The notes below the pieces were generated by a model that was not told where the DNA came from, searched no databases, and saw nothing but the letters and a program-made list of their open reading frames with translations. Below, piece after piece: positions 175 through 63,909 of a DNA stretch of 64,000 bases. The number at the start of each line of letters is the position of its first letter. Position 1 is the stretch's first letter. This stretch comes from an uncultured Gemmatimonadaceae bacterium (GTDB lineage: Bacteria > Gemmatimonadota > Gemmatimonadetes > Gemmatimonadales > Gemmatimonadaceae). The position numbers and the translations under genes are program-made. Location: assembly GCA_963829055.1 (NCBI GenBank), contig CAWHHI010000016.1, forward strand, positions 1,152,001 through 1,216,000. Direction: 5' to 3'.

Positions 175-2067
175 CGAGTCCCAGCGATCTCCAGTCTTCG
201 AGCCATTGTAGTAATCGCGGCGCACCGACCGGTGGGGGCATGACGTCGGCGGCAACAAACTGCCGGACGGATGGCTCGACTGGAAGAGGCGCGGGGACGC
301 CCTCTGCTCGATTCCAGAGGATCGCGGGCACGTGGTTGCCGAGCGCGCGCACGCGGTCGATGACGCGGACGGCCTCGAGCCGTACGACCGGCTCGTCGAG
401 CGCCACGACCATCACGCCGGCGCGCGCGGGGTCACGCAACAGCGCGCCCACCGCACGCGTGCGACGAGCGAACGCCAGCAGCTCGGCCGACACCTCGTTG
501 CCACCAGCGAGCTCGCGGTACTTGAGCATCAGCCGCAGCAGTCGGTGAGACCAGTCGAGGGCGAGTGCCGGCATCTCGAGCAACCGTACGAGGTGGCCCG
601 TGGGCGCCGGGTCGATGACGATCCGTTCGTACCGTCCGTCGGCGAGTGCGTCCCCAAGCCAGACGAGCGCGTACAGTTCGTCGATCCCGGGCGGCGCCAG
701 CGCGAGCAGTTGACGTGCGATCGCCCGATCGTGCGTGGCGTCGAGGCCGGGGCCCATCAAGGCGTCGAACGCGCCGTCGACGCGCGATTCGTATTCCGCT
801 CGCCAGCGGGCGAACGCGGCGCTCGCGTCGATCTGCCGGGCGACGAGACCGAACCCGTCGCGGACCAGCCGGTCCTCGTCACCAATGGGCTGATCGAGCG
901 CGTCGCCAATGGACGGCGCGGGATCGGTCGAGACGAGAAACGTGCGGTGGCCTACGCGCGCGTGAGCGAGCGCGATCGCGCACGAGGCAGACGTCTTTCC
1001 CACCCCACCCTTGCCGCCAACGATGAGCACCGGCGGAACTGTCGCAATGAAGTCGGTCGCGAACGGCAGCGCGCGCGTCGACGTGGACGGTCTCGTTTGG
1101 CGAGCGCGCTGTCCGGCCGCGGAGCGGCGAGCGCGCGACCAGCGCCTAACGTTGCTGCTCCACAGCTCGACACCATCGGGCCCGGCCGGAACGACATCGA
1201 GCGCGCGCACCGTGAACAGCGCGCCTCCAGGGGCGGCACCGCGCACGGCGTCGACTGCACTCGCGACGTTCTCGCCGTGCACCAACGGCACGGCGTTCAT
1301 CACGATCGCGCGCACAGTCAGTCCGCTGTTCGCGAGCGCGGCTGCATAACGCGTGGTTTCCGCCACGACGACGGGCTCAGGGCGCGTCACCAGCACGACC
1401 GCGGTGTGACTCGCGTCGCTCGTGATCGCATGAAGCCGCGCGATCCGCGAGCGCAGGCTCGCGATGAACGAGTCCGCCGCATCCGGTTTGTAGCGGTGGA
1501 GCAGCGCCGAGACCATGAACCGGTGCTTGGCCTGCATCGTGTCGAGCAGATCGATGACGGCCTGGAACGTGTCCGGGAGCGCGAGCAGCCGTAGCGTGTG
1601 CCCCGTGGGCGCGGTGTCGAGAATCACGCGCTCCCAGTCGCCATCGTCGGCGAGATCCGCGAGCGCCAGCAGCGCCATCGTCTCGTCGATCCCCGGAAGC
1701 GTCGCATCGATGAGTCCCTGAATGTCGTCGCGATCCAGGTACGTGCCGCGATCGATGATCGTCGCCAGGGTCTCGCCCCATTGCTGGATGAACTTCGCGC
1801 GCGCGGCGGTCGCGTCGAGCTGACACGCGAACAGATTCGGCACCGCCGCGACCGGCGACGGTGCGCCGCCGAGCGGGGATCCGAGCACGTCGGCGAGCGC
1901 GCCAGCCGGGTCGGTCGAGAGGACGAGCGTGCGGACGCCATCGCGCGCGCTCCGGGTGCCTAACGCGGCAGCACAGGTCGTCTTGCCGACGCCTCCCTTC
2001 CCCCCAACGAGCGTCCAGGACGCGAGCGACGCGAGCAGCGCGTCGATCCCGCTCAGCCGGCGGTCAT
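167..2067 (-). CDS. Tandem ArsA/GET3-family ATPase (two ATPase domains)
   Basis: Two deviant Walker A motifs (GGKGGVGKTT upstream of the listed ORF start, GGKGGVGKTS internally), two STDPA motifs, DTAPTGH and DPAPTGH. Likely start is ATG 2067 overlapping the gvpG stop, with a 1-bp slip near 2058. Confidence 0.85.
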
Positions 2068-2369
2068 TCGGCGTCGTCGCTCTCCCGCGCCACTCGCACC
2101 GGGCCGCCAGCGGTGGCCATGCCGAGCCGCTCCCGCCACGCGCGCACCTCGCGCAGGCGCGCCATCACGTCCGCCTCTCGGCGCACGTATTCCTCGTCGT
2201 CAATGTCGCCGAGCTCGACCAGCATCTGGAGCTCCATGAGCTCCTGCTTGATGGGGGTGTCGTCGACGAGCTGCTCCTCCACGACGCGCTGCACCTTGCC
2301 TAACGACCAGCGGATGCCCGCGACAGGTCCCGCGACGGGAAAGAAGAGGAGCTTACTCAGCAGGCCCAT
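2064..2369 (-). CDS. gvpG: Gas vesicle protein GvpG
   Basis: MGLLSKLLFFPVAGPVAGIRW...ELMELQMLVELGDIDDEEYVRRE matches the GvpG pattern; lies between gvpF/L and the ATPase. Confidence 0.85.
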   Translation of the reverse strand: MGLLSKLLFFPVAGPVAGIRWSLGKVQRVVEEQLVDDTPIKQELMELQMLVELGDIDDEEYVRREADVMARLREVRAWRERLGMATAGGPVRVARESDDAE

Positions 2370-2385
2370 CGTCCAGACCCGGAAC

Positions 2386-2446
2386 GCGGATGGCGGATGG
2401 CGGATGGCGGAACATTCGATTCCCCATTCCCGATTCCCTATTCCCG
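2386..2446. repeat. Short tandem heptamer repeats (GCGGATG x3; ATTCCCN x4)
   Basis: Read directly in the gvpF-gvpG spacer. Confidence 0.8.
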
Positions 2447-3524: not shown

Positions 3525-4259
3525 ATGCGCCTCACTATGCGTCCGCTCGCCGCCGTCGCGCTCACGGTACTCGCTGCCTGCGGGTCCATCACCGATCCGG
3601 TCGATCCCCTGGCCAAACGGACACCGCCGCCGCCTCCGCCTCCGGCGCACCCGATCATTCTGTTCGTGCACGGATGGAACGCGAACGCGACTACGTGGAC
3701 GACCATGGTCGGACGCTTCAAGGCGGACGGGTGGCAGAGCTCGGAGCTGTCTGCCTTCTCGTACGACTTCTCGAAGTCGAACGCGACCACGGCGGCGCTG
3801 ATCGCCGGGAAGGTGGACTCCATCCGCGCCAAGACGGGCGTGGCCCAGGTAACGATCATCTCACACTCGATGGGCGCCCTCTCGGCGCGCTACTACGTCC
3901 GCAACCTGGGCGGCGACGGTAAGGTCGCGGCGCTCATTACGCTCGGCGGCACGAACCACGGCACGAACACGGCCGTGTTCTGCCTGCAGACATCGTGCAG
4001 GGAGATGATCCCGGGATCGTCGTTCCTGACCGCGCTCAACGCGACGGATGAATCGTGGGGATTGCCGCGGTACGCTACGTGGTGGTCGCCGTGCGACGAG
4101 GTGATCAATCCCCGTGACAGCGCACTGCTCAGCGGCGGCGCGGAGAACTATCAGACCGCATGCATTCAGCACAGTCAGCTGCACGAGGACGCCACCGTGT
4201 ACGCGTCGGTGCGTGACTGGGTGAAACAGCCGGCGACGGTCCTGGCGAGCGTGCGTTAG
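3525..4259 (+). CDS. Secreted lipoprotein triacylglycerol lipase (alpha/beta hydrolase)
   Basis: Lipobox LAAC, FVHGW oxyanion motif, SHSMG nucleophile, GGTNHGT, catalytic Asp/His region. Confidence 0.85.
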   Translation: MRLTMRPLAAVALTVLAACGSITDPVDPLAKRTPPPPPPPAHPIILFVHGWNANATTWTTMVGRFKADGWQSSELSAFSYDFSKSNATTAALIAGKVDSIRAKTGVAQVTIISHSMGALSARYYVRNLGGDGKVAALITLGGTNHGTNTAVFCLQTSCREMIPGSSFLTALNATDESWGLPRYATWWSPCDEVINPRDSALLSGGAENYQTACIQHSQLHEDATVYASVRDWVKQPATVLASVR

Positions 4260-4277
4260 GCAGCCAGCGTCGCAAGC

Positions 4278-6873: not shown

Positions 6874-7355
6874 ATTTACATCTCCCTGGAAAGCGTAAAA
6901 AGCGTAGCGTTACGACGACTGACAGGGCGGCGGGGCGGGAACCTCGCTTCGCGCGGAGCGGCGAAGAGGGCGCAGTTTATCGGCGTTCGTGAAACCGCGC
7001 CAGTCCGCACGTAAGTGGTCATACAGCAACGACTTATTCTTTGCACATCACGAATCTCAATCCGAGCTCGACTTTTCCACGGCCGCAGGATTACACCGCT
7101 CTCACGTTCGCCACGAAATCTACCCCGTTCGCGACTGCGATGGCTGCCTAACGCGTCGTGCATGGTCAACTCGATGACGCTAAAGCGGTTGCCCAATCCA
7201 ACGACCACATTCTCGGTCACGCCGCAGCCCTCCGTCCGTCGAGCACGGTAGTCGGCCGTTGGGAGCGCGCCGATCGCACGTCGGGTGTTCTTGCCCGGAA
7301 ACACGTGCAGCGTGCGTGCCACCGGCGCCCTCGCAGGCCGAACGCCGACAAGCAC

Positions 7356-7877: not shown

Positions 7878-9778
7878 GGCTGCTGGACCTGTCGGCCCAA
7901 CGCGCGGAAATACGCCACGAGGCCGTCGGCGACGCCTAACGCGTAGCGCTCCTGGAATTCCACCGTACGCACCGCCGCCTCCTGCTCGGGAATCATGATG
8001 AATGCGCCCTCACAGAGAACCGATGGCATCCAGGGGTGTCGCAGATCCGACAGGTTGTCGTAGAAGATGCCGAGGTCGCGGAGCCCCATCCGGAGAACCA
8101 TGCCGCGCTGGACCTCGCGCGCGAGCGGCTCGGACGACGGATGAAAATAGTACGATCCCGTCCCGTTCGCGGTGAACGGATTCACGCCGTCGGGAAGGGC
8201 GTTGAGGTGAATGGATACGAAGGCGTGTGCGCCCGCCTGACGTGCGAGCACGGGACGGATCGCCAGCGCAAGCGGATCGGCCGTCGTCCGCGTCATCACC
8301 ACGCGGGCTCCGCGCGCCTCGAGAATCGTCTTGAGACGCTGGCTGATCGCGAGCGTCGGGACCGCTTCGTACAAGCCTGTGGGACCTGTGGAGCCCGCTG
8401 GCGGATGGCCGGCATTCACCACGATCGTCAGCCCCTTGAGTGGCGACGCCGCATCGATCGCCGGCTGGCGACGGATGCGAAGCGTGAACGCGCCGCGATC
8501 CCACATGGGGAGGTAGCCGTATGGCGCGTGAGCGAGGTCGATCTCGAAGCGGGCGCGGTCGCTCGTCTCCTGGTACCAGCGCACGCGTCGCACGAGGGAG
8601 TCATCGCCGACGTAGCCGATGATATCCGTGTTCGCCTGCACGCCATACATCACCAGCACCAGCGTGTTGCCCTGCTCGCGAACCTCGAACGGCGGTCGAT
8701 CTCCAGTCGGGATGACGACGTCCACCCAGTCGCGCGACGCGACGACGCGCGCGTTGCCCGCGGTGCGGCGCGGCCCTGCAATGCCGGCCGGAAGCTCCGT
8801 CACGTCGCCGGCCGCGGCCCACGCCTCGAGCCCGGAATCGAGTCGAACGCGGACCATGTCGCCGACCCGACCCGTGGCTTCCAGCGTGGTCCCGGCGAAC
8901 AGCAGCCACTTGTACGTCCCGTTAGGCACCGGCCGCAGGATCACCACCCGGTCGGTATCGGGCACGCCGGCTCCGCCGGTGAGACGGACCCACCGTACCC
9001 GCAGTGGGTCGTCGACCGTGACGTCCCGGATCGCGAAGCGGGCCGTGTCGAGTCCGCGGCCAACGACCAGCTCCGCGCCAGCCGCGAGCGCCTCGGCAGG
9101 GGCGTCGGTCGACCAGACGAACGGGTCGACGTCGTTCGGACCGACGGTAACACGCAGGGAATCCAGTGCACGCGCGGCGTTCACGAGCCGGCGTTCGCTT
9201 CCGTCCCTCAGCCGAACGGTTACGACCGCGTTTCTCGGTGCGCGCAGGCTCACGCGAACGCGCTCGCCGGCGCGCGCGATGCGGACGCCGCGCGGCGATA
9301 CACTGGCCGTGTCCACCACCAGGCGACCGGTGTCAGCGAGCACGAGGCGCGGCGGCAGCAGCTTGATGGGATGATCGGCCCGCGCTGTATCGGCCCCACG
9401 CGCAGCGACGATCGCGTATCGCGGCGCGGTCGCTGGAGGTACCGGCAAGTACGCGATGAAGCTTCCGTTGGGTACGACGGGCACCGGCGTCCCGTTGATG
9501 CGGAGGGTCGCCCGCCCGCTGCCAACGGTGCCGAAAATGAAGTTCGAGTCTCGCGCCTGAACAACGGCGCCGGCCGGCGGGTAAACCACACGGACGGCGA
9601 GCGGCCCATCGACCAGCGGGACGGGCGGGAGGGCCGCCGCAGCGACGGGTGCCGCCGATCGGGCCGCCGGTGACCGCGCCGGAGCGCATGCCAGCACCGC
9701 TGCCGCGACGCCGGCGATGAGGCGAGGAACACGCGTTCGTGCGCGAACTCGTGAGCAGTGGGGCCTATCATCGAGCAT
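7874..9778 (-). CDS. N-acetylmuramoyl-L-alanine amidase (Amidase_3), probable lipoprotein
   Basis: C-terminal NAGH..E..SIHLNA..VLCEGAFI zinc motifs; N-terminal AVLAC lipobox; start approximate. Confidence 0.85.
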   Translation of the reverse strand: MLDDRPHCSRVRARTRVPRLIAGVAAAVLACAPARSPAARSAAPVAAAALPPVPLVDGPLAVRVVYPPAGAVVQARDSNFIFGTVGSGRATLRINGTPVPVVPNGSFIAYLPVPPATAPRYAIVAARGADTARADHPIKLLPPRLVLADTGRLVVDTASVSPRGVRIARAGERVRVSLRAPRNAVVTVRLRDGSERRLVNAARALDSLRVTVGPNDVDPFVWSTDAPAEALAAGAELVVGRGLDTARFAIRDVTVDDPLRVRWVRLTGGAGVPDTDRVVILRPVPNGTYKWLLFAGTTLEATGRVGDMVRVRLDSGLEAWAAAGDVTELPAGIAGPRRTAGNARVVASRDWVDVVIPTGDRPPFEVREQGNTLVLVMYGVQANTDIIGYVGDDSLVRRVRWYQETSDRARFEIDLAHAPYGYLPMWDRGAFTLRIRRQPAIDAASPLKGLTIVVNAGHPPAGSTGPTGLYEAVPTLAISQRLKTILEARGARVVMTRTTADPLALAIRPVLARQAGAHAFVSIHLNALPDGVNPFTANGTGSYYFHPSSEPLAREVQRGMVLRMGLRDLGIFYDNLSDLRHPWMPSVLCEGAFIMIPEQEAAVRTVEFQERYALGVADGLVAYFRALGRQVQQP

Positions 9779-11082: not shown

Positions 11083-12525
11083 TCACACGCGGCGAACGAG
11101 CCACCGGCCGGCAGCCCTGACCATCGCCGGGACGGCACTCCAGCATGCGACAACGAGGCTCGCGCCCGCGAGCGAGAGCTCGTGCGCGGGATGGCCGCAC
11201 CAGACGACAGCCGTATCGCGGCCAAGGCGTCGCGCCTCGGCGCATAACGCGGCCGCATCGCTGATGGCGCGAGCGTCAACGTGGCTCAGTGTGGACGCGT
11301 TCGTGCCGGGCGGCAGGAGCACCACCACGAGCGTGGACCGCACCACACCCGACGGCGTCGTCACGTGCCTAACGCTCGACCCATCCGCGCCCGCGTCCGC
11401 GATGCCGGCCGCGAATGCGGCGACGATGGACGGCACGCCGGCCTGCTGGGATGCGCCGACAACTGCAACCTCGATGGGCGACGCGACGCGCACGCTGCGC
11501 CCGCGAATCACGGAGATCGCGCGCTCTCCGACGTCGCCGAGCCACGCGTGGTCGTCCGCGGAGCGCGCGAGGAACGACGAGGGCGCGCTCGCCATTTCCG
11601 CCCTGAGGCGCTGCCGACTACCCGCATCGTGCACGCGTTCGCGGTCGAGGCGTCCGGCCTGCACGGCATCCATCAACGCTCGCAGCTCGACGTCGACGTT
11701 CGCAGGGCGCACGACGAGATCGATCCCGGCAGCAACCATGTCCGCGGCAGCTACGCGCGCGCCGGTCTGAATGGCGAGCGACTCGGCGTCGGCGATGGCG
11801 AGACCGTCGAAGCCGAGTTGACCGCGGAGCAGCTTCTGAAGAATGGGCCGTGACAACGGAGCCGGAGCGCCGCTGGGATCGAGCGCCGAGTACCTCGCGT
11901 CGGCGATCATGACGCCGGCGACGCCGGCGTCGATGGTTGCGCGAAACGGAACGAGGTCCGTCGCATAGAGAGAATCATCGCTGTCGCGCACGGTTGGCAT
12001 CTCGAAGGCAGTCCGGATGATGCGACCAGCGCCGGGAAAGTGCCCCGCGAAACAGAGCACGCCTTCCGCCTGCGCGGCATCCACCCACTCCGATGCAGCG
12101 GCTGAGACCAGCGTCGCATCCGTGCCGAACATGTCGGCGCTGGCGCTGACAGCGACGTCACACGACGGCGCGAACAACGCGTTGCATCCGGCACGCCGAG
12201 CCTCCCGCGCCACGATGTGCGCGACGCGTCGGACGACGAGCGACTCGCGGAGCGACGCGATGGCGCCCGGTGGTGGCAACGCGACGGGATCACCCCACTC
12301 GGCAGCCGCGATCGTCGATGGCGCAATCGCGATGATCGGAGCGCTGTCAGCCTGACGCCGGATGTCCGCGGCCAGGGCCGAAACGGCATCGCACGACCCG
12401 CCCTCGATCAGGAACCCGCCGACGCCGGCCGCGAGCGCGCGGCTCACCGCCGGTCGCACCGGCGCGAACCCAAGCGTCGCATCCCACCGGATCGACGGCA
12501 GCAGGAGTCGCGCGATCTCGCGCAT
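11083..12525 (-). CDS. GH3 beta-N-acetylhexosaminidase (NagZ)-like protein with degenerate active site
   Basis: GHFPGAG, DLVPFR, LLRGQLGFDGLAIAD; directly downstream of anmK and murQ. Confidence 0.7.
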   Translation of the reverse strand: MREIARLLLPSIRWDATLGFAPVRPAVSRALAAGVGGFLIEGGSCDAVSALAADIRRQADSAPIIAIAPSTIAAAEWGDPVALPPPGAIASLRESLVVRRVAHIVAREARRAGCNALFAPSCDVAVSASADMFGTDATLVSAAASEWVDAAQAEGVLCFAGHFPGAGRIIRTAFEMPTVRDSDDSLYATDLVPFRATIDAGVAGVMIADARYSALDPSGAPAPLSRPILQKLLRGQLGFDGLAIADAESLAIQTGARVAAADMVAAGIDLVVRPANVDVELRALMDAVQAGRLDRERVHDAGSRQRLRAEMASAPSSFLARSADDHAWLGDVGERAISVIRGRSVRVASPIEVAVVGASQQAGVPSIVAAFAAGIADAGADGSSVRHVTTPSGVVRSTLVVVLLPPGTNASTLSHVDARAISDAAALCAEARRLGRDTAVVWCGHPAHELSLAGASLVVACWSAVPAMVRAAGRWLVRRV

Positions 12526-12553
12526 TGGCTCTCGTGACCTATGCCTAACGCAT

Positions 12554-13702
12554 TCAGGCTGGCGTGCGCTGGCCCAGGATGCGCGGCCCACGCGCGCCGG
12601 TGACGCTAGGCAAGTTGCCGGGCTCGCCCACGAGGTGCAGGTAACCGAGCAGGGCGAACGCCACCGCCTCCTTGGCCTCACCGTCAAAGAAGACGTCGCT
12701 GAAGCGCCGAACGACGACCGACGGAAGCGCGCTCGTGATCGCGTCGACGAGCGCCGGATTCTCGGCACCGCCGCCAGAGACGACGAGCTCGCGCACTGGC
12801 TCGGGCACGAACCGGCTGAACGCATCCGCAATGCTGGCCGCCGTTAGGCTGACGGCCGTCGCGACAATGTCGCCGGGAGATGCGGCCGGCTTCTCGGTGC
12901 GGCACCGCTCGATGAACGCGGAGATGAACGCCGGATCGAACAGCTCACGACCGGTCGACTTGGGCGGCGCACTCGCGAAGTACGGATCCGCGAGCACGTG
13001 CCGCACGACCGCGTCGATCGGCGTGCCGCTCCGCGCCAGCTTGCCATCGACATCGTACTCGAGGCCGGGAGCGACGACACGCGTGACGCCATCGATGACG
13101 ACGACGCCCGGCCCGGTGTCGAACGCGCGAGTGGAGATCGTGACGCCGCCCGGCGGAACGATGGTCACGTTGCCAATGCCGCCGAGGTTCTGGAGGGCAC
13201 GCCAATCGGTCGGGTGCGCGAACAAGAGTGCGTCGGCGGCCGGGACGAGCGGAGCGCCCTGCCCCGCGGCGGCGACGTCGCGGACACGAAAGTCGCTGAC
13301 CACGTCGATCCCGGTGCGCTCGGCGATCACGGCCGGTTGGCCGAACTGCCACGTCGAGTGACCGGGCTCGTGCCACACGGTCTGGCCGTGGCTTGCGATC
13401 GCGGCAACGTCGGCGCGTCCGACGCCTGCGTCGGCGATGGCGGCGATCGCGGCGTCGGCCAGCCAGTCGCCGAGGTCGAACGCGAGGCGGCAGTACTCGC
13501 GCGGCGTCGTTCCGATGAGTGCCGTCGCGAGTCGCTGGCGCTGGGCGGCGTCGTACGACCTGACGCTCATGCCTAACAACTCGTAGGTGAATCGTCCGTC
13601 ATCGCCGCGATCGAAGCGGACGACGGCGGCGGAGATGCCGTCGAGCGACGTGCCGGACATGAGTCCGACGAGGACGCGCGATGTTGAAGCCGGCTGCGTC
13701 AC
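12554..13702 (-). CDS. anmK: Anhydro-N-acetylmuramic acid kinase
   Basis: GLMSGTSLDG, SHGQTVWH, DFRVRDVAAAGQGAPLVP, NLGGIGN, PKSTGRE, KEAVAFA; GTG start overlaps the murQ stop. Confidence 0.95.
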   Translation of the reverse strand: MTQPASTSRVLVGLMSGTSLDGISAAVVRFDRGDDGRFTYELLGMSVRSYDAAQRQRLATALIGTTPREYCRLAFDLGDWLADAAIAAIADAGVGRADVAAIASHGQTVWHEPGHSTWQFGQPAVIAERTGIDVVSDFRVRDVAAAGQGAPLVPAADALLFAHPTDWRALQNLGGIGNVTIVPPGGVTISTRAFDTGPGVVVIDGVTRVVAPGLEYDVDGKLARSGTPIDAVVRHVLADPYFASAPPKSTGRELFDPAFISAFIERCRTEKPAASPGDIVATAVSLTAASIADAFSRFVPEPVRELVVSGGGAENPALVDAITSALPSVVVRRFSDVFFDGEAKEAVAFALLGYLHLVGEPGNLPSVTGARGPRILGQRTPA

Positions 13703-14794: not shown

Positions 14795-16630
14795 ATGCCG
14801 ACCACGCTTCTCAGCAAATTCACCGCAGGCGCCACGGTGCTCGCCGCGTGCGCCGCAGTCGCCGCGTGTCGCACCGCGCGCACGTCGGATCCCATCGCCG
14901 ACAAGTGTGTGACATCAGTCGGCCTCGTAGAGGGCGCGCCGGCGAGCGTCGTCACGCAGGCGGCGGGTGTAAGTCGCACGCGAGCAGCCGCGTTTCCCGC
15001 CGAGTGGCGCTTCAAGGCCGGCGAGCAGGGCACGGTGGCGCCGACCGCCATGGTCGCGAGCAACAACGCGCTCGCGAGCGCCGCCGGCGATGAGATCATG
15101 AAGGCTGGCGGCAACGCCGTCGATGCCGCGGTCGCGACAGGCTTCGCGCTCGCCGTCACGTTCCCGTTCGCCGGCAACCTCGGCGGCGGTGGGTACATGG
15201 TGATCCGCATGGCCGACGGACGCACCGCTGCCGTGGACTATCGCGAGATCGCGCCGCTCGCGGCGATCCGCGACATGTACATCGGCCCCGACGGCAAGCT
15301 CACGAACGAGAGCGTGGTCGGATATCGCGCGTCGGGCGTGCCGGGCGCGGTGGCTGGAATGACCGCGGCGCTCGCGAAGTTCGGCAGCAAGCCGCTCCGC
15401 GAGGTGCTGCAACCCGCGATCAGGCTCGCCGAAGAGGGCTTCATCGTCGACAGCGTGTTGTTCGCGTCGCTGCGCGGCAGTCGCGCGTACCTCGAGCGCT
15501 TTGACGGGAAGACCGTCTTCTACCCGAATGGAGAACCGCTCCAACCGGGCACACGGTTCCGTCAGCCGGCGCTCGCGCGCACGCTCAAGCTGATCGCCGA
15601 GCAGGGTGCGGACGCCTTCTATCGAGGTGAAGTCGGTGATTCGCTCGTCGCGGGCATGAAGCGCGGCGGCGGGATCATCACGAAGGAGGATCTCGCGCGC
15701 TACAAGCCCGAGATGCGCCAGCCCATCGCGTCCACGTATCGCGGCTATCACCTGCTCACGATGCCGCCGTCGTCGTCAGGCGGCGTGACGATCACCGAGA
15801 CGCTCAACATTCTCGAGACGTACGACAACCTGCCGCCATTCGGCAGCGTGGGGTACGCGCATGCGCTGGCGTCGGCGTATCAACGCGCGTTCATCGATCG
15901 CAACTCGAAGCTCGCCGATCCGGCGTTCGCGCAGGTGCCGCTCGACAAGCTCACGAGCAAGTCGTACGCGCGCGAGCTTCGCAAGACGATCGCGAACGAC
16001 AAGGCGACGCCGACGCCAACGCTCGAGCGTACGATCGCCGACGGCATGCACACCACGCACTACTCGGTGGTGGACGGTTCGGGCAACGCCGTCGCGACGA
16101 CGACGACGATCAACAACGGCTACGGCTCGGGCGTGTACCTAACGGGACCGGGCTTCTTCATGAACGACGAGATGGACGACTTCGCCGCGCAGCCGGGCAA
16201 GCCGAACATGTTCGGCCTCGTGCAGGGCGAGGCGAACGCGATCGCGCCGGGCAAGCGGATGCTGAGCGCGATGTCGCCGACGATCGTGCTCGACCCGCAG
16301 GGCAAGCTGTTGCTGGTGGTCGGCGCGGCGGGCGGCCCACGCATCATCACGGCGACGTCGCAGGTGATTCTGAACGTGATTCAGAATCACATGACGCTCG
16401 CGGACGCGATGCGCGCGCCGCGGCTGCATCACCAGGCGCTGCCGGATACGCTGCGGTTCGAGAGTGCGGGCCTAACGCCGGCGGTCGTGGATTCGCTGCG
16501 CGCGATGGGATGGGGCATCGTGTCGACGGGCTCGGTGGCGAACGTCAACGCCATCATGCGCATCCCGGGCGGCCTGGTTGGAGTCACAGAACCGCGGGAT
16601 CGTGGGCCGAGTCGGGCGGTAGGACACTGA
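14795..16630 (+). CDS. ggt: Gamma-glutamyltranspeptidase (lipoprotein)
   Basis: GGNAVDAAVA, DYREIAP, autoprocessing HTTHYSVVD, NDEMDDF, PGKRMLSAMSP, GAAGGPRI. Confidence 0.95.
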   Translation: MPTTLLSKFTAGATVLAACAAVAACRTARTSDPIADKCVTSVGLVEGAPASVVTQAAGVSRTRAAAFPAEWRFKAGEQGTVAPTAMVASNNALASAAGDEIMKAGGNAVDAAVATGFALAVTFPFAGNLGGGGYMVIRMADGRTAAVDYREIAPLAAIRDMYIGPDGKLTNESVVGYRASGVPGAVAGMTAALAKFGSKPLREVLQPAIRLAEEGFIVDSVLFASLRGSRAYLERFDGKTVFYPNGEPLQPGTRFRQPALARTLKLIAEQGADAFYRGEVGDSLVAGMKRGGGIITKEDLARYKPEMRQPIASTYRGYHLLTMPPSSSGGVTITETLNILETYDNLPPFGSVGYAHALASAYQRAFIDRNSKLADPAFAQVPLDKLTSKSYARELRKTIANDKATPTPTLERTIADGMHTTHYSVVDGSGNAVATTTTINNGYGSGVYLTGPGFFMNDEMDDFAAQPGKPNMFGLVQGEANAIAPGKRMLSAMSPTIVLDPQGKLLLVVGAAGGPRIITATSQVILNVIQNHMTLADAMRAPRLHHQALPDTLRFESAGLTPAVVDSLRAMGWGIVSTGSVANVNAIMRIPGGLVGVTEPRDRGPSRAVGH

Positions 16631-16790: not shown

Positions 16791-16795
16791 AACCG

Positions 16796-51759: not shown

Positions 51760-51775
51760 GCGTTAGGCCTAACGC
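51760..51775. repeat. Perfect 16-bp palindrome made of two overlapping GCCTAACG motifs
   Basis: GCGTTAGGCCTAACGC between convergent genes. Confidence 0.9.
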
Positions 51776-53312: not shown

Positions 53313-54731
53313 ATGCGTGACCAGCGCGCCGAAGTCTCGTTGAACATTGCACCCGATGAGCGCTACGAATCCGCGGAGCTCGAGCCGCGGGCGTTCCGCA
53401 TTCTCATCGTCGGCGACTTCAGCGCCCGCGGCGACGACGCCGCGACGGCCAACGACACACCGCGCCGCGTGGACCGCGACGATCTCGACGCGCATCTCGC
53501 GCGCATTGCACCGCGACTTCGCGTGACGTGGACGGGCAGCCACTCGACCTCGCGTTCACGTCGATGGAGGATTTCCTCCCCGATCGACTCGTGCAGCGCG
53601 TGTCGATGCTCTCGCGCAATGCCGAGAGCGCGGACGTCGATGCTCCAGTCGTGCGGCGGGCGGCGGATGTCGCGCAACGGCCGGTCGACCTCGGCCGAGC
53701 CGTGTCGGGCGGATCGCTGCTCGACGACATGCTCGACGATGTCCCCGGAGCACCTCGGCGAGCCGATGAGCTGTCGGCGTTCGTGGAGCGCGCGGTTGCG
53801 CCACATCTCGTGCGGCCGCCTGATTCCGAGACGGCCGCTCGCGATGCCGCAAAAGACCAGGCGACGACGCGCCTGCTTCGCGCCGCGCTCCATCACCCGC
53901 GCGTCCAGGCGCTCGAGGCCTCGTGGCAATCCCTCGACTTTCTCGTGAGACGCCTCGACACCGACGGCGACCTCGCGCTCTTTCTGCTCGACGCGCCACG
54001 CGCCGGCGTCGCCGCGGCGCTCGAACGACTCGCGCAGCATCGCGACGTGGCAGGCGGTGAGGAGTGGGCGCTGGTGGTGTCGCTGCACAGCGTCGCCGAT
54101 GGAGACGAAGGGGCCGAGTGGCTCGCGCGCGTCGCGATGGCGGCGCGCGCGCTCGAGGCGCCGATCATTGCCGGTGCGCCCGCGAGCTTCGCGGGGCGCA
54201 CCTCGGCGACCGCGCTCGACGATGACAGCGCGCCGAGCGCGGAACCGGAAGTGTTCACACTCATCCGTCGTTCGCTCGAAGCACGGTTCCTCGGCCTAAC
54301 GTTTCCGCGACGTGCTGCTGCGCGTGCCGTACGGCGGCGAGAATCCGTGCGAGACGATCGCGTTCGAGGAGATCGAGGATCCGGAGCGACACGACGACTA
54401 CCTGTGGGGGAGCGGCGCTGTTCTCGTCGCGCTGCTGGTCGGTGAGGCGTTCAACGCGCGCGGCTGGGCGATCGGCCCGCGGATGCCGCTCGACGTCGGG
54501 TCGCTCCCGCTGTTCACGTATCGCCGCGGACCCGAGACCGTGGCCACGCCGTGTGCGGAGACGCTCATGTCCGAGCGCGTCGCGCGGCATCTGTTGTCTC
54601 GCGGGCTCATGCCGCTCGCGTGGATCAAGAACACCGATCGGGTGCGGCTCGTCGAGCTGCGATCCGTCGCCGAGCCAACGGCGCCGCTCGCGGCCGCATG
54701 GGCGGGCACATCGTCGAGGAGCAACGCATGA
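53313..54731 (+). CDS. TssB-TssC fusion-like sheath-domain protein, frameshifted
   Basis: TssB-like FRILIVGDFS..VDRDDLD..FTSMEDFLPD, then TssC-like LHHPRVQALEASWQSLDFLV, PR.LLRVPYG, FEE, YLWG; slips at about 53530 and 54310. Confidence 0.75.
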
Positions 54732-56263
54732 GCGCAGGCGTGATCAAGCTCGCCTTCGTCCGAGGCGCCGGTGCCGACGCCGAGTCCGCTCCGCCTCGAG
54801 CCCGCGTCGGCGTTCGAGACCGATCCGTCGCTTCCTGCGTGACGCCGCGTTCGAGGAGCACGAGCTCTGTCGTCGACTGGAGGTCGAATCGCTGAACCGA
54901 TTCCGCGCGCTCCGCCATGGCCGGCCGGCGACACCGCTCGGCGACGCGACTGACGCGCTCATCCGGCTTGTTCCTGGACAACGAGCCGATGTCATGGTCC
55001 GACGCGCGGCACATGGATTCCCGCGGCGCCGCTCGATGCCATGCACTCGTTAGGCCTGCTGCGTGACCATCGGTCCGATCCGAGCCAGCGTGGTCATCGA
55101 ATGTCCTGCTCTACCCGACGGAGTCGCTGTTCATGGCGTCCGATGTCGCCGCGCTGCCCGAGGGTGGCGAGGCAGAGTGGTGGGATCTCGTCTACGCGGC
55201 GATCACGTCCAACACCCGAACGTTCATGTCGACGATCCCGCGGTCGCGCTGCGCGGCGTTTCTCGAGCTCTGCGCGGGGACAGGCGTGGCTGCGCTGGCG
55301 GCCGGCGCGACGTTCGCCGATCGGGCGTGGGCGATCGATGTCACCAGATCGGTCGACCGAGTTCGCGCGGTTCAACGCGCGGCTCAACGCGCTCGATACC
55401 GTGACCGCGATGTGCGGGGATCTGTATGCGCCGGTCGCCGGCATGACGTTCGACCGGATCGTCGCGCACCCACCGTACGTCCCGTCCCGCCAGACGACGC
55501 TCGTGTACCGGGATGGCGGCACGGATGGTGAGGACGTGACGCGCCGGATCATCGCCGGCTTGCCCGACCACCTCCGCCCGGGCGGCTCGTTCTACTGTAC
55601 GTGCACGGCGACCGACCGCACCGACGCGCCGCTCGAACACCGGCTGCGCACGATGCTCGGGCGAGCGTGGCGACGAGTTCGACATCGCTGTGGTCGTCAC
55701 CAACGACTTCAATCCGACGCAGTATTACGTCGGCCGGGCGGTCGCTGGTCGCGACACCTGGCAGGAAGCGGAAGCCTGGCACAAGCACTTCGCGGCGCTC
55801 GACGTGACGAAGATGGTGTACGCCACCGTCGCGATCGTGCGTCACGAGCACGCGCACGAGCCGTACACCGTGCGCCGGCGGGCGGGATCACGGACGTGCG
55901 GGACGGAAGTCGCCGCTCTGCTCTCTGCCGCCGAGATCGTCCGCGACTGCCGGGCGCGCTCGAGCGGCTGCTCGACAGTCGGCCGGTGCTGCCGACGCAC
56001 GTCGCCCTCGAGTCGACGCACGTCCGCGAGGGCAGCGGGTGGGCTGTGCGGACGGCCATGGTCTCGAGCACGGTACCGTTCGACGTTCGTCTTCCGTGTC
56101 CGCCGGAGATGATCACGTTCTCGCGCGGATGGACGGCACGCGAACGGTCCGCGAGCTGTATGCGGATCTCTCGGCCGCCGACTCGCTCGCCGAGGGTGCA
56201 TCGATCGACCGACTCGCGTCGTACATCCACATGCTGGCGTCGCACGGTTTCGTGGAGTTGTAA
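54728..56263 (+). CDS. SAM-dependent methyltransferase (PrmC/HemK-like motif) with C-terminal winged-helix/PqqD-like segment, multiply frameshifted
   Basis: LELCAGTG, AIDV, GDLYAPV..FDRIVAHPPYVP, RDGGTDGED, HLRPGG; C-terminal MDGTRTVRELY...LASHGFVEL. Confidence 0.7.
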
Positions 56264-56458: not shown

Positions 56459-56977
56459 ATGGCACGAGAGAGTACACAGAAGAAACTGGAGCGTGTGCGT
56501 CCGCCACGCGTCCAGATCAGCTACGATGTCGAGACCGGCGGCGCGATCGAGATGAAGGAGCTCCCGTTCGTGATGGGTGTGCTCGGGGATTTCTCCGGTC
56601 AGCCAGTCGAGCCACTCGCCAAGCTGAAGGAGCGTCAATTCGTCGAGGTCACCCCCGACAACTTCGACGACGTGCTCGCGAGCATGAAGCCTCACCTGCA
56701 GTTCTCGGTGGAGAACAAGCTCAGCGAAGATGCGAATGCCGGAAAGCTCGGCGTCGATCTGAACTTCCGATCGCTGGACGATTTCTCGCCGGAAGCCGTC
56801 GCGCGTCAGGTGAAGCCGCTCAAGGAGCTGCTCGACCTGCGCACGAAGCTCGCCGATCTGCGCGGCACGCTGCAGGGCAACGACAAGCTCGAGGAGATCC
56901 TGCAGGCCACGTTAGGCGATGAGGCCAAGATGAAGCGCCTGAAGGACGAGATGGGCGGGCAAGGAGGCGCGTCATGA
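56459..56977 (+). CDS. tssB: T6SS sheath small subunit TssB (VipA)
   Basis: RVRPPRVQISYDVE, ELPFVMGVLGDFSG, FRSLDDFSPE. Confidence 0.97.
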   Translation: MARESTQKKLERVRPPRVQISYDVETGGAIEMKELPFVMGVLGDFSGQPVEPLAKLKERQFVEVTPDNFDDVLASMKPHLQFSVENKLSEDANAGKLGVDLNFRSLDDFSPEAVARQVKPLKELLDLRTKLADLRGTLQGNDKLEEILQATLGDEAKMKRLKDEMGGQGGAS

Positions 56978-59779: not shown

Positions 59780-61579
59780 ATGCCACTGCGCGATGACCTG
59801 CTGACGCCGATCCCGGGCGCGAACCCGGGCGGCACCGATCTGCGGTACGAGCTATACGACATCGTGAGGGAGGCGCGGCGCGAGGAGATCGACGCGCCGA
59901 CGGGCGGCTGGGATCGCCCGCGCAAGACGGCCGATTGGATGGTCGTCGCGAAGGAAACGAGCGCCGCCCTCGCCACGAAGTCGAAGGATCTGCAGCTCGC
60001 GGTGTGGCTCGCCGAGGCGAGCTACCATCGCGAATCCTTCGGCGGGTTCGCCGCGGCTGTGCGCTTCACCGCACAGATGCTCGAGCAGTTCTGGGATCAT
60101 CTCTACCCGGAGCTCGAAGACGGCGACGTCGAGGCACGGGTTGCCCCACTGGCGTGGCTCGGGGGTGACAAGCAGCCGCTCGTGCAGGCGATTCGGCTCG
60201 CGCCCATTACGCTGAGCGGCCTCACCATCTTCAAGTTTCGCGACTCGCAGGACGTCGGCTTCGAGTCGCCGTCGGACGACTACGACAAGAAGCAGGCGCG
60301 AAAGAAGAAGATGGACTCCGGCAAGATGTCCGGAGAGGAATTCGATCAGGCGTTCAGCGCGACGCCGAAGGCCTGGTACAAGCAGCTCGCCGCGGACCTC
60401 GCCGCCGTGCTCGACGCGATCAGCGTGCTCGATCGCGTCGGCAACGACAAGTTCGGGCGCGACGCACCCGGATACTCGCAGCTGCGGAAGCCGATCGAGG
60501 AAGTGCAAGGCATTGTCCGCGAGCTGCTGGCGAAGAAGCTGGAACTGGAGCCGGACCCGATCGAGGTCGCGCCCGTCGTCGAGGAGGCGCCGGAAGCGTT
60601 AGGCAGCGAGAGTGCCGCCGCGGCGGCATCCGGAACCGGCGTGCTGAGCGTCGAGCCGACCAGCCGCGATGATGCGAACCAGCGAGTGATCGTCGTGGCG
60701 CGTTGGCTTCGGCGCGCCGAGCCGACGGGCCCGACGTCGTACATGATGCTGCGCGCGCTCCGATGGGGAGAGCTGCGTGCGCAAGCGCCCGAGCCGGACC
60801 CACGTCTCCTGGCGGCGCCGCAGCCGGCGTCGCGCATGCAGCTGCGCACGCTCATGCTCGACGCGAAATGGGCTGATCTGCTCGAAGCAGCGGAAACGGT
60901 GATGGCGACGCCGGCCGGTCGCGGGTGGCTGGACCTGCAGCGCTACACCTTGCGCGCGACGGACGAGCTGGGCGCCTCATACGGGCAGGTCGGCTCGGCG
61001 ATTCGGAGCGAGCTGCGGTCCCTGCTGCGCGAGATCCCGTCACTCGTCGACCAAACGCTGATGGACGGCCTCCCGACGGCCTCGCCCGAGACTCGCAACT
61101 GGTTGCGCGCGGAGTTCGCGGGCGCCGACGCCGACGAGGTGTCGATCTCGGCAGAGGCCGAGGCCAGCAGCGGTCCGGTGGTCGCCGCCGGTGGCGACGC
61201 GCGCGATCGCAGCTACGAGCGCGCGTTAGGCGAGGTGCGCGCCGGCCGGCCGGAGAAAGCGATCGAGATGCTGCTCCGCGACCTCGATCGTGAGAAGAGC
61301 GCGCGCGGCCGGTTCCTTCGTCAGACCCAGCTCACGCGCATCATGGTCGAAGCGGGCTTCGACGCGATCGCCCGCCCGATCCTCGATGAGATGTTGCAGC
61401 GTGTCGAGACGCATCGGCTCGAGGAGTGGGAAGCCGGAGCGCTCCTCGCGCAGCCGCTGGCAGCACTGTACCGATGTCTCGAGAAGAGCGGCGAGGACGC
61501 TGCTCGTCAGAAGCAGCTGTACCTCCGGATCTGCCGCCTCGACCCGGTGCAGGCAATGGGCTTCGGCCCGCGGAGCTGA
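59780..61579 (+). CDS. tssA: T6SS TssA (ImpA N-domain)
   Basis: LLTPIPGANPGGTDLRY, SKDLQLAVWL, FWDHLYP, WLDLQRY, LEEWE, ICRLDP. Confidence 0.92.
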   Translation: MPLRDDLLTPIPGANPGGTDLRYELYDIVREARREEIDAPTGGWDRPRKTADWMVVAKETSAALATKSKDLQLAVWLAEASYHRESFGGFAAAVRFTAQMLEQFWDHLYPELEDGDVEARVAPLAWLGGDKQPLVQAIRLAPITLSGLTIFKFRDSQDVGFESPSDDYDKKQARKKKMDSGKMSGEEFDQAFSATPKAWYKQLAADLAAVLDAISVLDRVGNDKFGRDAPGYSQLRKPIEEVQGIVRELLAKKLELEPDPIEVAPVVEEAPEALGSESAAAAASGTGVLSVEPTSRDDANQRVIVVARWLRRAEPTGPTSYMMLRALRWGELRAQAPEPDPRLLAAPQPASRMQLRTLMLDAKWADLLEAAETVMATPAGRGWLDLQRYTLRATDELGASYGQVGSAIRSELRSLLREIPSLVDQTLMDGLPTASPETRNWLRAEFAGADADEVSISAEAEASSGPVVAAGGDARDRSYERALGEVRAGRPEKAIEMLLRDLDREKSARGRFLRQTQLTRIMVEAGFDAIARPILDEMLQRVETHRLEEWEAGALLAQPLAALYRCLEKSGEDAARQKQLYLRICRLDPVQAMGFGPRS

Positions 61580-61582
61580 GTC

Positions 61583-62080
61583 ATGGCGAACTCCGAGATC
61601 GAGCGCCCGGTCCGACCGTCGGTGCTCGATCGGCTCATCGACGATGATCACCGCAGCAATGTGGAGCCGGCGCTCACGCGATCGCAGTCGGTGCGCCAGT
61701 TCAAGACCGCGCTCCGACGTGATCTCGAGTGGCTGCTGAACGCGCGTCGCACGATTACCCCGGTGCCCGAGGATTCCGAGCAGCTCGCAAGATCCGTGTT
61801 CACGTTCGGCCTGCCGGACATCACGTCCATGAGCAAGGACTCGCGCGAGTCGTTCGAGAAGCTGGCGCGGATGATCCAGTCGGCGATCGACGTATTCGAG
61901 CCACGCCTCACGGACGTGACCGTGCAGCTCCGCGAGGGGAATTCGAAGCTGTTGCGCGACGTGCACTTCGTGATCGATGGCATCCTCAAGCTCGATCCCA
62001 TGCCCGAACGCGTGATGTTCGACACGCGCCAGGACGAACGCGGCGCCATGAAGGTGCAGGAGGGTGCCGGTGGCGAATGA
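61583..62080 (+). CDS. tssE: T6SS baseplate TssE (gp25-like)
   Basis: PSVLDRLID, RRDLEWLLNAR, FGLPD, FEPRL. Confidence 0.93.
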   Translation: MANSEIERPVRPSVLDRLIDDDHRSNVEPALTRSQSVRQFKTALRRDLEWLLNARRTITPVPEDSEQLARSVFTFGLPDITSMSKDSRESFEKLARMIQSAIDVFEPRLTDVTVQLREGNSKLLRDVHFVIDGILKLDPMPERVMFDTRQDERGAMKVQEGAGGE

Positions 62081-63909
62081 CCAGCTGCTCCAGTACTACG
62101 AGCGTGAGCTGACGTTCCTGCGCCGCATGGGCGCCCGCTTCGCGCAGGAATATCCGAAGATCGCGTCGCGCCTCGATCTCGAGCCGAGCAAGTGTGAGGA
62201 TCCGCACGTCGAGCGGATGCTCGAGGCGTTCGCGTTTCTCGCCGCCCGCGTGCACAAGCGGATCGACGAGGATGTGCCCGAGGTCAGCGAGGCGCTGCTC
62301 GAGATCGTGTACCCGCACTACGTGCGGCCTATCCCGGCGATGTCGCTCGTCGAGTTCGAGCTGGATCGCGAGCAGGGCAAGCTCACGTCGGGGTTGCCCG
62401 TGCCTCGCAATTCGCTGCTCTACTCGCGACCCGTGGCCGGCGTGCCGTGCAAGTTCACCACGTGCTACGACACCACGCTCTGGCCCGTCCGCGTGGCGTC
62501 GCTCGAGTGGATGACACCCGATCGGCTCAAGCCGGCTGTGCGTGTCACCGATGCGGTGGCCGCGCTGCGGCTCGAGCTGCACTGCTTCGCCGATCTCGAG
62601 TTCAAGGCGCTCGACCTCTCCGCGCTCCGGCTGCACCTCGCGGGCGACAGCGGCGTGACGTTCGCGCTGTACGAGCTCCTGTGCAACAATTGCACGTCGA
62701 TCATCGTGCGCGAGCCGGGAGGCAAGAAGAGCCTAACGCTGCCGGCGTCTTCGCTGCAGCCCGTCGGGTTTGCCGAGGGCGACGGCCTGCTGCCCTACCC
62801 GCGCCGCTCGTTTCTTGGCTACCGGTTGCTGCAGGAGTACTTCACGTTCCCGGAGAAGTTTCTCTTCTTCGATCTGGCGATCTTCGACGCGGTGCGGTCT
62901 GCCGGCTTCGGCGAGAAGGCGGAAATCATCTTTCTCATTCCGCCAGTTCGAGCGCGGCGAGCGACGTGCGCTGCTCGAGACCGGGCTGTCGCCGCGCTCC
63001 ATGCGCGTCGGCTGCACGCCGGTGGTGAATCTGTTCCCGCAGGTCTCGGAACCGATTCTGTTGACGCAGCGGAAGACGGAATACGAGTGTCGTGCCCGAT
63101 GCCAGGCGACGGCGCACCACACAGGTCTTCTCGGTCGACGAGGTCGTCGGCATCACGCCCGGATCGTCCGAGCCGCTGCGCATCGAGCCGCTGTACTCGT
63201 ACCGCCACGCGCGGAACGGGCAAGGCGCCGAGCTGTTCTGGACGGCGCGACGCCGACCGGCCGAGTGGCGGCTGGACAGCGGAACGGACGTCCATCTCTC
63301 GTTCGTCGACCTGTCGGCTCGCACGGTGCATCCCGACCGCGACGCGATCACGGCACGCCTAACGTGTTTCAACGGCGACCTGCCGGGCCGGCTGCCGTTC
63401 GGCGATGAGACGGGCGACTTCGAGCTCGAGAACGGCGGGCCGGTACGACGGATCGTGGCGCTCAGCAAGCCGACCGATGTCGTGCATCCGCCACTCGGGC
63501 AGGCGCAGCTCTGGCGGCTCCTGTCGCAGCTGTCGCTCAACTATCTGCCGCTCGCCGACGGCGGTGCCGACGCGCTTCGCGAGATCCTCCGGTTACACAA
63601 CTTCTCCGGCACGACGGCGGGTGAGCGTCACATTCGAAGGCATCGTGTCGGTGGCTGGCGAGCCGACCTACGCGCGCGTCGTGACGGAGCACGGTGTCGC
63701 GTTCGCGCGCGGCCGCCGCGTGGACATGATGTTCGATGAGGAGCAGTACGCGGGCGGCGGGCGTGTATCTGTTTGCGAGCGTGCTGGAACGATTCTTCGG
63801 CATGTACGCGTCCGTGAACAGCTTCACGACGCTCGTGGCGCGATCGAACAAACGGAAGGAGATGGTTCGCGCGTGGCCACCGAGAGCGGGATGGAAGAGC
63901 CTCGTGTAA
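62070..63909 (+). CDS. tssF: T6SS baseplate TssF, frameshifted
   Basis: LLQYYERELTFLR, DPHVERMLEAFAFL, GYRLLQEYFTFPEKFLF, CTPVVNLF, LWRLLSQLSLNYL, ends WPPRAGWKSLV; slips at about 62940, 63090, 63640 and 63760. Confidence 0.95.

Follow-up and report, generated by a model that had tools for sequence, protein, structure and literature searches.

The stretch analysed here (the window, 64 kb) covers positions 1152001-1216000 of contig C16 in the 7.78-Mb, 20-contig assembly of a Gemmatimonadaceae genome (G000), and it carries ordinary chromosomal genes at a G+C content of 64-70% throughout: gas-vesicle and murein recycling genes, priA, a BatA/MoxR cluster and a type VI secretion cluster. Scattered within and between these genes is a non-palindromic octamer, GCCTAACG (CGTTAGGC when read on the other strand), hereafter called the word, which is the subject of this study. 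An exact search of both strands returned exactly 41 copies, 21 of them reading GCCTAACG on the forward strand and 20 on the reverse strand (Table 1), that is, the very number and every coordinate that had been reported in a first-pass annotation of the window. Their density, 0.64 per kb, equals the genome mean. In 100 dinucleotide-preserving shuffles the word occurred 0.85 times on average and three times at most, giving an enrichment of about 48-fold, so that the chance expectation of two to three copies put forward in that annotation was too generous; its estimate of about nine further one-mismatch copies keeping a CCTAAC core was exact, this hexamer occurring 50 times (4.9 expected), hence nine times beyond the 41 full words.

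Gene boundaries in the window come from our own crude gene calls. According to these, 28 of the 41 copies lie in genes, 11 between called genes and two at called gene ends (GCC-TAA); the in-gene copies are read in four frames, namely xCG-TTA-GGC (11 copies), xGC-CTA-ACG (8), CCT-AAC (5) and GTT-AGG (4), which agrees with the earlier description of a word found on both strands, mostly inside genes and in several frames. The further claim that some copies coincide with stop codons stands for the two called gene ends, with the reservation that the copy at 63357 gives no true stop, the tssF frame being shifted there by indels. A premature tssF stop carried by the word at 63360 was considered and rejected: the assembly reads the middle of this gene out of frame, and stops in that displaced frame are seen in relatives as well.

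Table 1. The 41 copies of the word in the window. Strand +, GCCTAACG read on the forward strand; strand -, GCCTAACG read on the reverse strand.
Position	Strand	Location	Reading in gene	Further observation
1144..1151	+	gene 167-1888(-)	AAC GTT AGG CGC	
1958..1965	+	between called genes		
2298..2305	+	gene 2064-2369(-)	TCG TTA GGC	
4254..4261	-	between called genes		
7146..7153	+	between called genes		
7934..7941	+	amidase gene 7874-9697(-)	GCG TTA GGC	
8920..8927	-	amidase gene 7874-9697(-)	GTG CCT AAC GGG	
11367..11374	+	GH3 gene 11083-12525(-)	AGC GTT AGG CAC	
12543..12550	+	between called genes		
12842..12849	-	anmK 12554-13702(-)	AGC CTA ACG	
16470..16477	+	ggt 14795-16630(+)	GGC CTA ACG	
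16794..16801	-	end of gene 16796-17671(-)	GCC TAA	gives the called stop (own gene call)
18638..18645	-	ABC transporter gene 17757-19553(+)	CGC GTT AGG CTG	
20270..20277	+	histidine kinase gene 19576-20388(+)	GGC CTA ACG	
23423..23430	-	gene 22717-23577(+)	GCG TTA GGC	
23594..23601	+	between called genes		
26713..26720	+	gene 26408-27796(+)	ACG CCT AAC GAT	exact in 5/6 sister species
29660..29667	+	priA 27863-30142(-)	TCG TTA GGC	at conserved Ser-Leu-Gly; present in an independent run's contig
30152..30159	+	gene 30117-31217(-)	GGC GTT AGG CCG	
31571..31578	-	Ser/Thr kinase gene 31172-32182(-)	CGC CTA ACG	exact in 5/6 sister species
32045..32052	-	Ser/Thr kinase gene 31172-32182(-)	CGC CTA ACG	exact in 4/6 sister species
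35300..35307	-	gene 34896-35888(-)	GCG CCT AAC GTG	exact in 0/5 aligned sister species
36834..36841	-	gene 36519-38540(-)	CGC CTA ACG	exact in 5/5 aligned sister species
37680..37687	+	gene 36519-38540(-)	ACG TTA GGC	
38454..38461	-	gene 36519-38540(-)	CGC CTA ACG	
38980..38987	+	batA-like gene 38665-39990(-)	ACG TTA GGC	
39369..39376	-	batA-like gene 38665-39990(-)	GCG CCT AAC GAC	
40032..40039	+	gene 39987-40373(-)	GCG TTA GGC	
41977..41984	-	between called genes		exact in 5/5 aligned sister species
45381..45388	-	tssM/icmF-like gene 44152-47586(-)	CCG CCT AAC GAC	
47290..47297	+	tssM/icmF-like gene 44152-47586(-)	GCG TTA GGC	
47612..47619	-	between called genes		
51761..51768	-			first half of overlapping inverted pair CGTTAGGCCTAACG
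51767..51774	+			second half of the same pair
54294..54301	+	between called genes		
55048..55055	-	between called genes		
56910..56917	-	tssB/vipA 56459-56977(+)	ACG TTA GGC	
60597..60604	-	tssA-like gene 59780-61579(+)	GCG TTA GGC	
61224..61231	-	tssA-like gene 59780-61579(+)	GCG TTA GGC	
62731..62738	+	tssF 62064-63362(+)	AGC CTA ACG	
63357..63364	+	inside tssF	GCC TAA	stop only in the frame displaced by assembly indels

Over the whole genome, we counted 5004 copies (2457 forward, 2547 reverse), about one per 1.5 kb, no contig falling outside 0.48-0.80 per kb. An order-3 Markov model ranks GCCTAACG first among the over-represented 8-mers of the genome (257 copies expected, z 296), and the ranks below it are its own sub-words; as these are enriched too, a maximum-order model failed to reveal the word, and order-3 and word-masked models were used instead. 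With the word masked in training, the order-3 model expects about 60 copies, an 83-fold excess. Genes were called with a codon log-odds caller of open reading frames (ORFs), which is crude and covers 75% of the genome (49% for an earlier caller based on a threshold on third-position G+C). These genes hold 3253 copies, compared with 136-161 (mean 150 +/- 8) in ten within-gene synonymous shuffles and 81-128 when codons are resampled from the genome codon usage; the enrichment, which the first-pass annotation was ready to abandon in the face of a codon-preserving shuffle, thus exceeds that null about 22-fold. Outside genes, the same calls place 1401 copies between genes and 366 across gene borders. 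All four stop-free frames are used (xCG-TTA-GGC 1299, xxG-CCT-AAC-G 901, xGC-CTA-ACG 604, xxC-GTT-AGG-C 433), the two remaining ones reading TAA or TAG, and the in-gene orientation bias is mild (1732 vs 1505). Copies are evenly spread along the gene length. The word explains much of the rare-codon use, with 1297 of the 2829 called TTA codons (46%) lying in a copy; it also supplies up to 211 of 837 TAA and 178 of 1746 TAG stops, figures to be taken as upper bounds because assembly indels shift frames and inflate ORF-based counts. As the flanks carry at most 0.13 bit per base over 15 bases on each side, that is, no information, the unit is the octamer itself and not a repeat element.

Segment 24000-43900 of the window aligns to all six sister genomes at 77-78% DNA identity. 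Its 13 word sites yield 78 comparisons with the six genomes, 69 of which could be aligned; the word is exact in 41 of these, whereas only 14-17% of all 8-mers are unchanged in the same alignment. In G003 and G004, where the genome-wide count is about halved, the missing sites are mostly ordinary sequence with at least two base differences and not one-off decay products. The Ser-Leu-Gly of PriA that is conserved across the family is encoded by TCG TTA GGC in the window and by TCG CTC GGT, TCC CTG GGA and the like in word-less relatives, and a codon alignment reveals that lineage L001 gained five different word sites in priA, one of them with a Ser-to-Gly change.

These data dispose of the most trivial explanation, namely that the word is no real feature and comes from chance, codon or peptide bias, remnants of repeat elements or a long-read basecalling or polishing artefact. 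It is true that the assembly contains single-base indels: with respect to the contigs of all four public runs that we aligned to 26000-35999, the window has them at 26352-26353, 34419-34420 and 34964-34965. However, every null model is exceeded 20-80 fold, the flanks give no repeat-element signal, the Leu-Gly encoded in priA matches its homologues, and the six other genomes of the genus, which are short-read-type assemblies of 260-1170 contigs, hold 2501-5112 copies each. Furthermore, stretch 26000-35999 is present, with at least half of its sampled sequence words, in 16 public runs, and at least part of it in 20 runs from 14 studies; an independent contig piece (X5) that spans 29560-29913, the word at 29660 included, shows 0 differences, and among the 40 differences listed (329 more lie beyond these) none falls inside any of the six words of the stretch. 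This explanation is, thus, already refuted, the artefact envisaged in the first-pass annotation included, and its proposal of a lineage-specific signal acting at the DNA level, rather than a peptide, codon, repeat-element or sequencing effect, is supported. The frames of tssF (62052-63998) and vipB/tssC (56974-58677) are shifted over part of their length by assembly indels, which probably explain the 86% completeness estimate of the genome.

The distribution of the word was established in 30 relatives and in a further even sample of 300 Gemmatimonadota genomes; the tallies include the unpublished word-poor genomes G013 (throughout) and G078, G117 and G198 (in the 300-genome sample), on which no conclusion rests. 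Among the relatives, the word is enriched in the six other genomes of the genus, in G014 from another genus (6360 copies in 5.1 Mb), in G010 (605) and in G030 (345), G018 having 194 copies and the remaining 20 at most 65. In the larger sample, where we called word-rich any genome with at least 300 copies on both strands, 13 genomes qualified, all from one order (13 of the 198 sampled there): the family of the window contributed 9 of 70 genomes and a second family of this order 4 of 125, while none of the 102 genomes from nine families outside it qualified. In this sample, abundance of the word is patchy and restricted to one order. Patchiness extends to the inside of a genus, g40, in which G235 and G292 carry 3896 and 4141 copies and G288 only 66, with a single copy in a 227-kb sample of its 5.2 Mb; the word sites of G235 are ordinary codons in G288, e.g., CGCTCGGC. 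On a priA tree (a single gene, 33 rows, FastTree, midpoint root, the densities of the L rows being taken from 4-22 kb only), the word-rich rows split into four or more distinct clades, every one of which has word-poor sisters. No alternative dispersed word was found in the 227-kb sample of G288, and candidates for such a word were rejected there and in G206, the top 8-mers being tandem heptamers and a repetitive extragenic palindrome (REP)-like element. In G288 this REP-like element is centred on GACCTGACCCCG. The heptamer arrays (GAAAGCA, AGGGTTC, GTCTTGA) of word-poor or word-sparse relatives often come as two inverted arrays about 130 bp apart, e.g., at 600-5810 and 12040-12110 of L147 (G288:C5) and at 4314-4492 of L229 (G206:C5).

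Along the chromosome, the copies of G000 avoid each other within about 200 bp: gaps shorter than 200 bp number 215 for 611 expected from an exponential distribution of the same mean, and gaps of 500-2000 bp number 2776 for 2246 expected. Such even spacing fits a benefit per DNA fragment and not a site-autonomous process. Pairs at 20-150 bp showed no excess of attC-like or terminator-like inverted arrangements in G000, the four orientation classes being alike (forward-reverse 29, reverse-forward 23, forward-forward 32, reverse-reverse 40). Nor is there any replication polarity. Across 137 bins, each of 50 kb, strand z-scores show a standard deviation of 1.01, hence no skew beyond binomial; bins with GC skew above +0.01 contain 327 forward and 377 reverse copies, those below -0.01 contain 624 and 603, and the leading-strand share on C16, about 55%, matches the mild in-gene orientation bias. 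The word is, thus, non-polar despite a clear terminus-like switch on C16, which argues against Chi or the FtsK-orienting polar sequences (KOPS), as the first-pass annotation had foreseen. This switch, located near 550 kb, is sharp in both GC skew and gene orientation, with gene ratios of up to 47:1 and 1:50 in 50 kb; for a Gram-negative lineage of high G+C content, genes are very strongly biased to one strand.

The same measurements bear on the idea that the word is bound by a protein that organises the chromosome or guides recombination (nucleoid-associated protein, or a Chi-like or KOPS-like signal), and is selected for a function in the cell and not for transfer. Regular spacing and strong conservation of the sites would suit such a protein, as would the equal density on the large contig and on two contigs of about 1 Mb in G299 (0.77 and 0.74 per kb); the lack of polarity would not, and neither would the lack of helical phasing in G000 (Rayleigh z of 3.5 at period 10.5, with 11 periods tested), where codon periodicity alone was seen. 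An essential organiser, moreover, would not be on in G235 and G292 and off in G288 within one genus. Chi, KOPS and the SpoIIIE recognition sequences (SRS) are likewise asymmetric 8-mers over-represented in native DNA, but they follow the direction of replication closely and their enrichment is modest, whereas the word has no polarity and is at least 80-fold enriched. We consider a structural role quite improbable, and the nucleoid-protein option of the first-pass annotation gains nothing beyond the even spacing.

One-off variants of the word are not all equal. In G000, ACCTAACG (20.6x), CCCTAACG (13.7x), GCATAACG (9.3x) and GCCTAACA (17.3x) are enriched, which makes positions 1, 3 (A) and 8 tolerant (one-offs 9-21x), whereas all one-offs at positions 2, 4 and 7 stay at 0.4x-1.2x, with position 2 down to 0.4x. 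As transitions at positions 2, 4 and 7 are the commonest expected decay products, such strictness looks like the recognition profile of a protein and not like mutational debris. Samples of 260-380 kb per genome distinguish two dialects: G014 (genus g9) matches G000 (genus g1), with A or C at position 1, A at position 3 and A at position 8, while G235 (g40) and G299 (g43) tolerate GCCCAACG and lack the position-1 A/C and position-3 A variants. G235 accepts any base at position 8, and ACCTAACG occurs in it once for about 42 occurrences expected from the ratio of G000. The two dialects are not sisters on the single-gene priA tree, each being found in non-sister clades, which hints that a putative reader of the word may have been transferred between lineages.

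Very frequent octamers with variants at their ends are known from cyanobacteria, where highly iterated palindrome 1 (HIP1) and alternate palindromes are described as varying at the first and last base and as patchily distributed (Elhai 2015, PMC4390886, in the part consulted). The word resembles HIP1 in running at high frequency across genes, in being replaced or absent among relatives, in its end-biased one-offs (ACCTAACG, CCCTAACG and GCCTAACA above) and in having no proven function. By analogy, a methyltransferase could mark the inner hexamer, and methyl-directed or very-short-patch mismatch repair could convert near-matches to the word; the depletion of position-2 one-offs, as if drained, and a patchy, phylogeny-incongruent distribution typical of restriction-modification genes would fit. 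HIP words are, however, palindromes with cognate methyltransferases, and GCCTAACG differs from its reverse complement. A search for Vsr gave 0 of 10 word-rich genomes and 3 of 21 word-poor ones; the methyltransferase search, limited to five families, gave among the seven genomes of the genus no C5 enzyme (PF00145, 0/7), no N6/N4 enzyme (PF01555, 0/7) and one N6_Mtase (PF02384, 1/7). The two methyltransferase-like genes of G000 do not track the word either: one, an Eco57I/MmeI-type domain fused to an SNF2 helicase, is vertically inherited as a single copy in 29 of 31 relatives, and the other, D12-like, is present in all seven genomes of the genus and in six word-poor ones and was not found in word-rich G014, G010 and G030. 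Site-autonomous repair would, besides, leave the avoidance of close pairs unexplained. The known effects of very-short-patch repair are far below the 80-250-fold excess seen here. Vsr and methyltransferases were rejected as readers, as they show no association with the word across the genomes searched; a HIP1-like origin is unlikely, and no gene supporting the methylation-linked option of the first-pass annotation was found in the families searched. The MmeI/Eco57I-type protein, whose methyltransferase domain is followed by an SNF2/ResIII helicase and whose length is about 1000-1130 aa, lies at C8:73551-78317 of G000 (L265 5551-10317), where it is frameshifted in the assembly; its single-copy vertical inheritance is unusual for an architecture resembling restriction-modification.

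A more exact resemblance is with integrons. The core consensus of the attC site consists of an R'' box, RYYYAAC, and an R' box, GTTRRRY, with crossover after the G (PMC12901181, in the part consulted), and the word is a letter-for-letter instance of both, GCCTAAC fitting R'' and GTTAGGC fitting R'. For a random 8-mer, the chance of containing a specified 7-mer on one strand or the other is about 2x10^-4, and this identity is too exact to dismiss. Moreover, the word is the actual R' end of the cassette arrays of the order. In word-poor G021, copies form one-strand clusters with a spacing of about 550-650 bp, and each of them closes a canonical attC site made of GCCTAACA, an inverted repeat and then CGTTAGGC; 24 copies occupy 20 kb of G021:C95, a further array lies on G021:C80, and one array stands beside an integron integrase. 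G000 has its own integron (C20:190000-209000, L091), whose integrase (C20:208041-208958, 265.7 bits, just over the family cut-off) is transcribed toward a small cassette array with attC sites ending in the word. The first-pass statement that the word is not a described motif thus has to be amended: it is an instance of the attC core, while nothing on it was found in the literature on Gemmatimonadota integrons and attC.

The dispersed words themselves are not attC sites, in which R'' and R' lie 50-140 nt from each other and fold into a hairpin. Of the 5628 GTTAGGC sites of G000, 283 are preceded by an RYYYAAC at a distance of 41-140 nt, compared with 258 in the control orientation, and only six of the partnered sites form strong hairpins; lacking a partner excess, lying on mixed strands and being for 95% without R'' partner or hairpin, they were rejected as such. 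They also differ from attC in occurring in ordinary genes, on both strands and away from intI. The integrase (IntI) exceeds the cut-off score in 5 of 10 genomes among the word-rich relatives and in 13 of 21 among the word-poor ones, is broken into three fragments in the densest genome, G014, and was not found in G002, G004 and G010; it is present in all of G235, G292, G288, G299 and G159, hence in word-poor G288 as in its word-rich sisters, and its tree has five label changes and no rich-only clade. As neither its presence nor its tree tracks the word, the integrase was rejected as the reader.

In principle, the word could still be a double-stranded R box read by IntI or another integron factor, e.g., at attI- or attG-like cassette sites genome-wide, or by a reader evolved from the integron system. 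IntI is indeed reported to insert cassettes at genomic attG sites (PMC12901181, in the part consulted, citing Loot 2024), and word-rich genomes were found, among those sampled, only in the order with these arrays, in whose word-poor members the word mainly serves as the R' end of one-strand arrays beside intI. Against this stand the distribution and tree of IntI, the negligible R'' partner excess and the variants of the g1/g9 dialect, which depart from RYYYAAC by tolerating A at position 3 and not T at position 2; on balance, we find the link rather unlikely. A bolder version, very improbable in our opinion, makes the word an integron R box in genome-wide use, read in several Gemmatimonadales lineages by a transferable factor that recognises the cassette crossover core. 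The reader could then be an uptake receptor suited to capturing integron cassettes from environmental DNA, or an integron-derived factor, and the drive would stamp the core every 1.5 kb, bracketing every gene with integrase-type sites. If true, this would link natural transformation to integrons and open a route to the unsolved origin of gene cassettes.

The word also tells native from foreign DNA. The largest word-free stretches of G000 (C6:5440-55037, C11:0-46789 and C6:591808-623330; 31-50 kb) are all at contig ends, two of them with a deviant G+C content (0.70 and 0.73), and they encode housekeeping-type genes (FtsK-like, TrpB/A, DAHP synthase, IlvD, GlnA, GreA). A 20-kb piece of C6:5440-55037 showed no synteny with the six sister genomes, giving gene-level matches only (66-72%), some of them to second copies in G000 itself. 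These stretches may be foreign DNA, or else assembly chimeras or mis-binned DNA; either way, the word marks the DNA of the lineage itself.

Given the observed enrichment, DNA-level nature, conservation, even spacing, absence from foreign DNA, patchy distribution and dialects, our preferred reading, by analogy and with a probability of roughly 0.4, is that GCCTAACG is a genome-wide "self word", a tag akin to the DNA uptake sequences (DUS) of Neisseriaceae and the uptake signal sequences (USS) of Pasteurellaceae, under a fragment-level drive such as biased DNA uptake or recombination. DUS are read by the minor pilin ComP, and DUS and USS are together treated as DNA uptake enhancing sequences (DUES) (PMC3630211, PMC3868556, 10.1101/2025.10.24.684340, in the parts consulted). 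The word resembles both in being short, non-palindromic and present in thousands of copies, about one per kb, on both strands and in genes regardless of frame, in combining a strict core with graded positions outside it, in having dialects that differ between lineages and in being absent from foreign DNA (the word-free stretches being, as said, at contig ends). It shares with them an even spacing, which Karlin et al. are said to have reported for USS in 1996.

The mechanism may be pictured as follows. A sequence-specific protein of the lineage would read the word as duplex or single-stranded DNA, demanding the inner bases (2, 4 and 7 absolutely) and tolerating variants at both ends. Point substitutions, typically from a CTS leucine codon to TTA, would write the word into ordinary genes wherever the protein sequence nearly allows it, and it would then be kept. 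A preference for word-carrying fragments would lie in the type IV pilus/ComEC machinery of uptake or in a step that follows closely, and recombination of such fragments into the chromosome would raise the word in native DNA by molecular drive; one copy per short stretch would suffice. G000 does encode ComEC with a metallo-beta-lactamase domain, a weak ComEA-like helix-hairpin-helix protein (HHH_3), PilM/N/O/Q, three pilin-like genes and PilT/B-type (T2SSE) ATPases, a presence that is permissive only. We infer that a protein reads the word and that uptake or recombination bias is the drive.

Several observations weigh against this self-tag interpretation. Competence genes are found nearly everywhere, word-poor relatives included; two pilin-cluster genes without annotation, which we considered as receptor, are found in rich and poor genomes alike (31-38% identity) and were rejected, being present regardless of word abundance. 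Our literature search found no report of competence in Gemmatimonadota. Inverted terminator pairs, typical of DUS, are not in excess, and there are no AT-rich flanking segments; the word is on or off within a genus, and its dialects do not follow the priA tree, albeit a single gene, whereas DUS dialects are distributed along phylogeny (PMC3630211, in the part consulted). Copies avoid each other over about 200 bp, a short distance in comparison with uptake fragments, and the identity with the integron core site is left unexplained. Membership of the DUS/USS class is thus not established: terminator pairs are absent, the dialects do not agree with phylogeny, and the word belongs to another phylum. 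Of the three options listed in the first-pass annotation, self-DNA uptake fits best, by analogy only, and none of them is proven.

Some features of the window bear on its gene content. The type VI secretion cluster (44152-64000) contains two tssK (VasE) paralogues, at 48450-49805 and 51863-53218, and the overlapping inverted pair of words (51761-51774) sits between them. Gas-vesicle genes are found at 167-3671 and 32184-32828, with two GvpL/GvpF homologues beside an ArsA-type ATPase, in what is a soil/rhizosphere Gemmatimonadaceae genome.

Nothing on such a word in Gemmatimonadota was found in the abstracts and listings searched, the word itself giving primer-type matches only. What is new here is the even spacing, the position-by-position tolerance with two dialects, the on/off pair within a genus, whose word-poor member has ordinary codons at the orthologous sites, and the finding that integrase, Vsr and methyltransferases tested negative. 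In practice, the word is a strong marker of native as opposed to foreign or mis-binned DNA in metagenome-assembled genomes of Gemmatimonadaceae, and its identity with the integron core ties two gene-transfer systems together in a concrete way that can be falsified. The sister genomes of one genus with about 4000 or about 66 copies, together with at least four separate word-rich clades and two dialects, amount to a natural experiment, and this on/off contrast means that whole-genome phylogenetic profiling can name the reader. To our knowledge, sequence-specific self tags have been established experimentally in two proteobacterial families only; a third case, in an environmental phylum, would, if true, show that the phenomenon is general.

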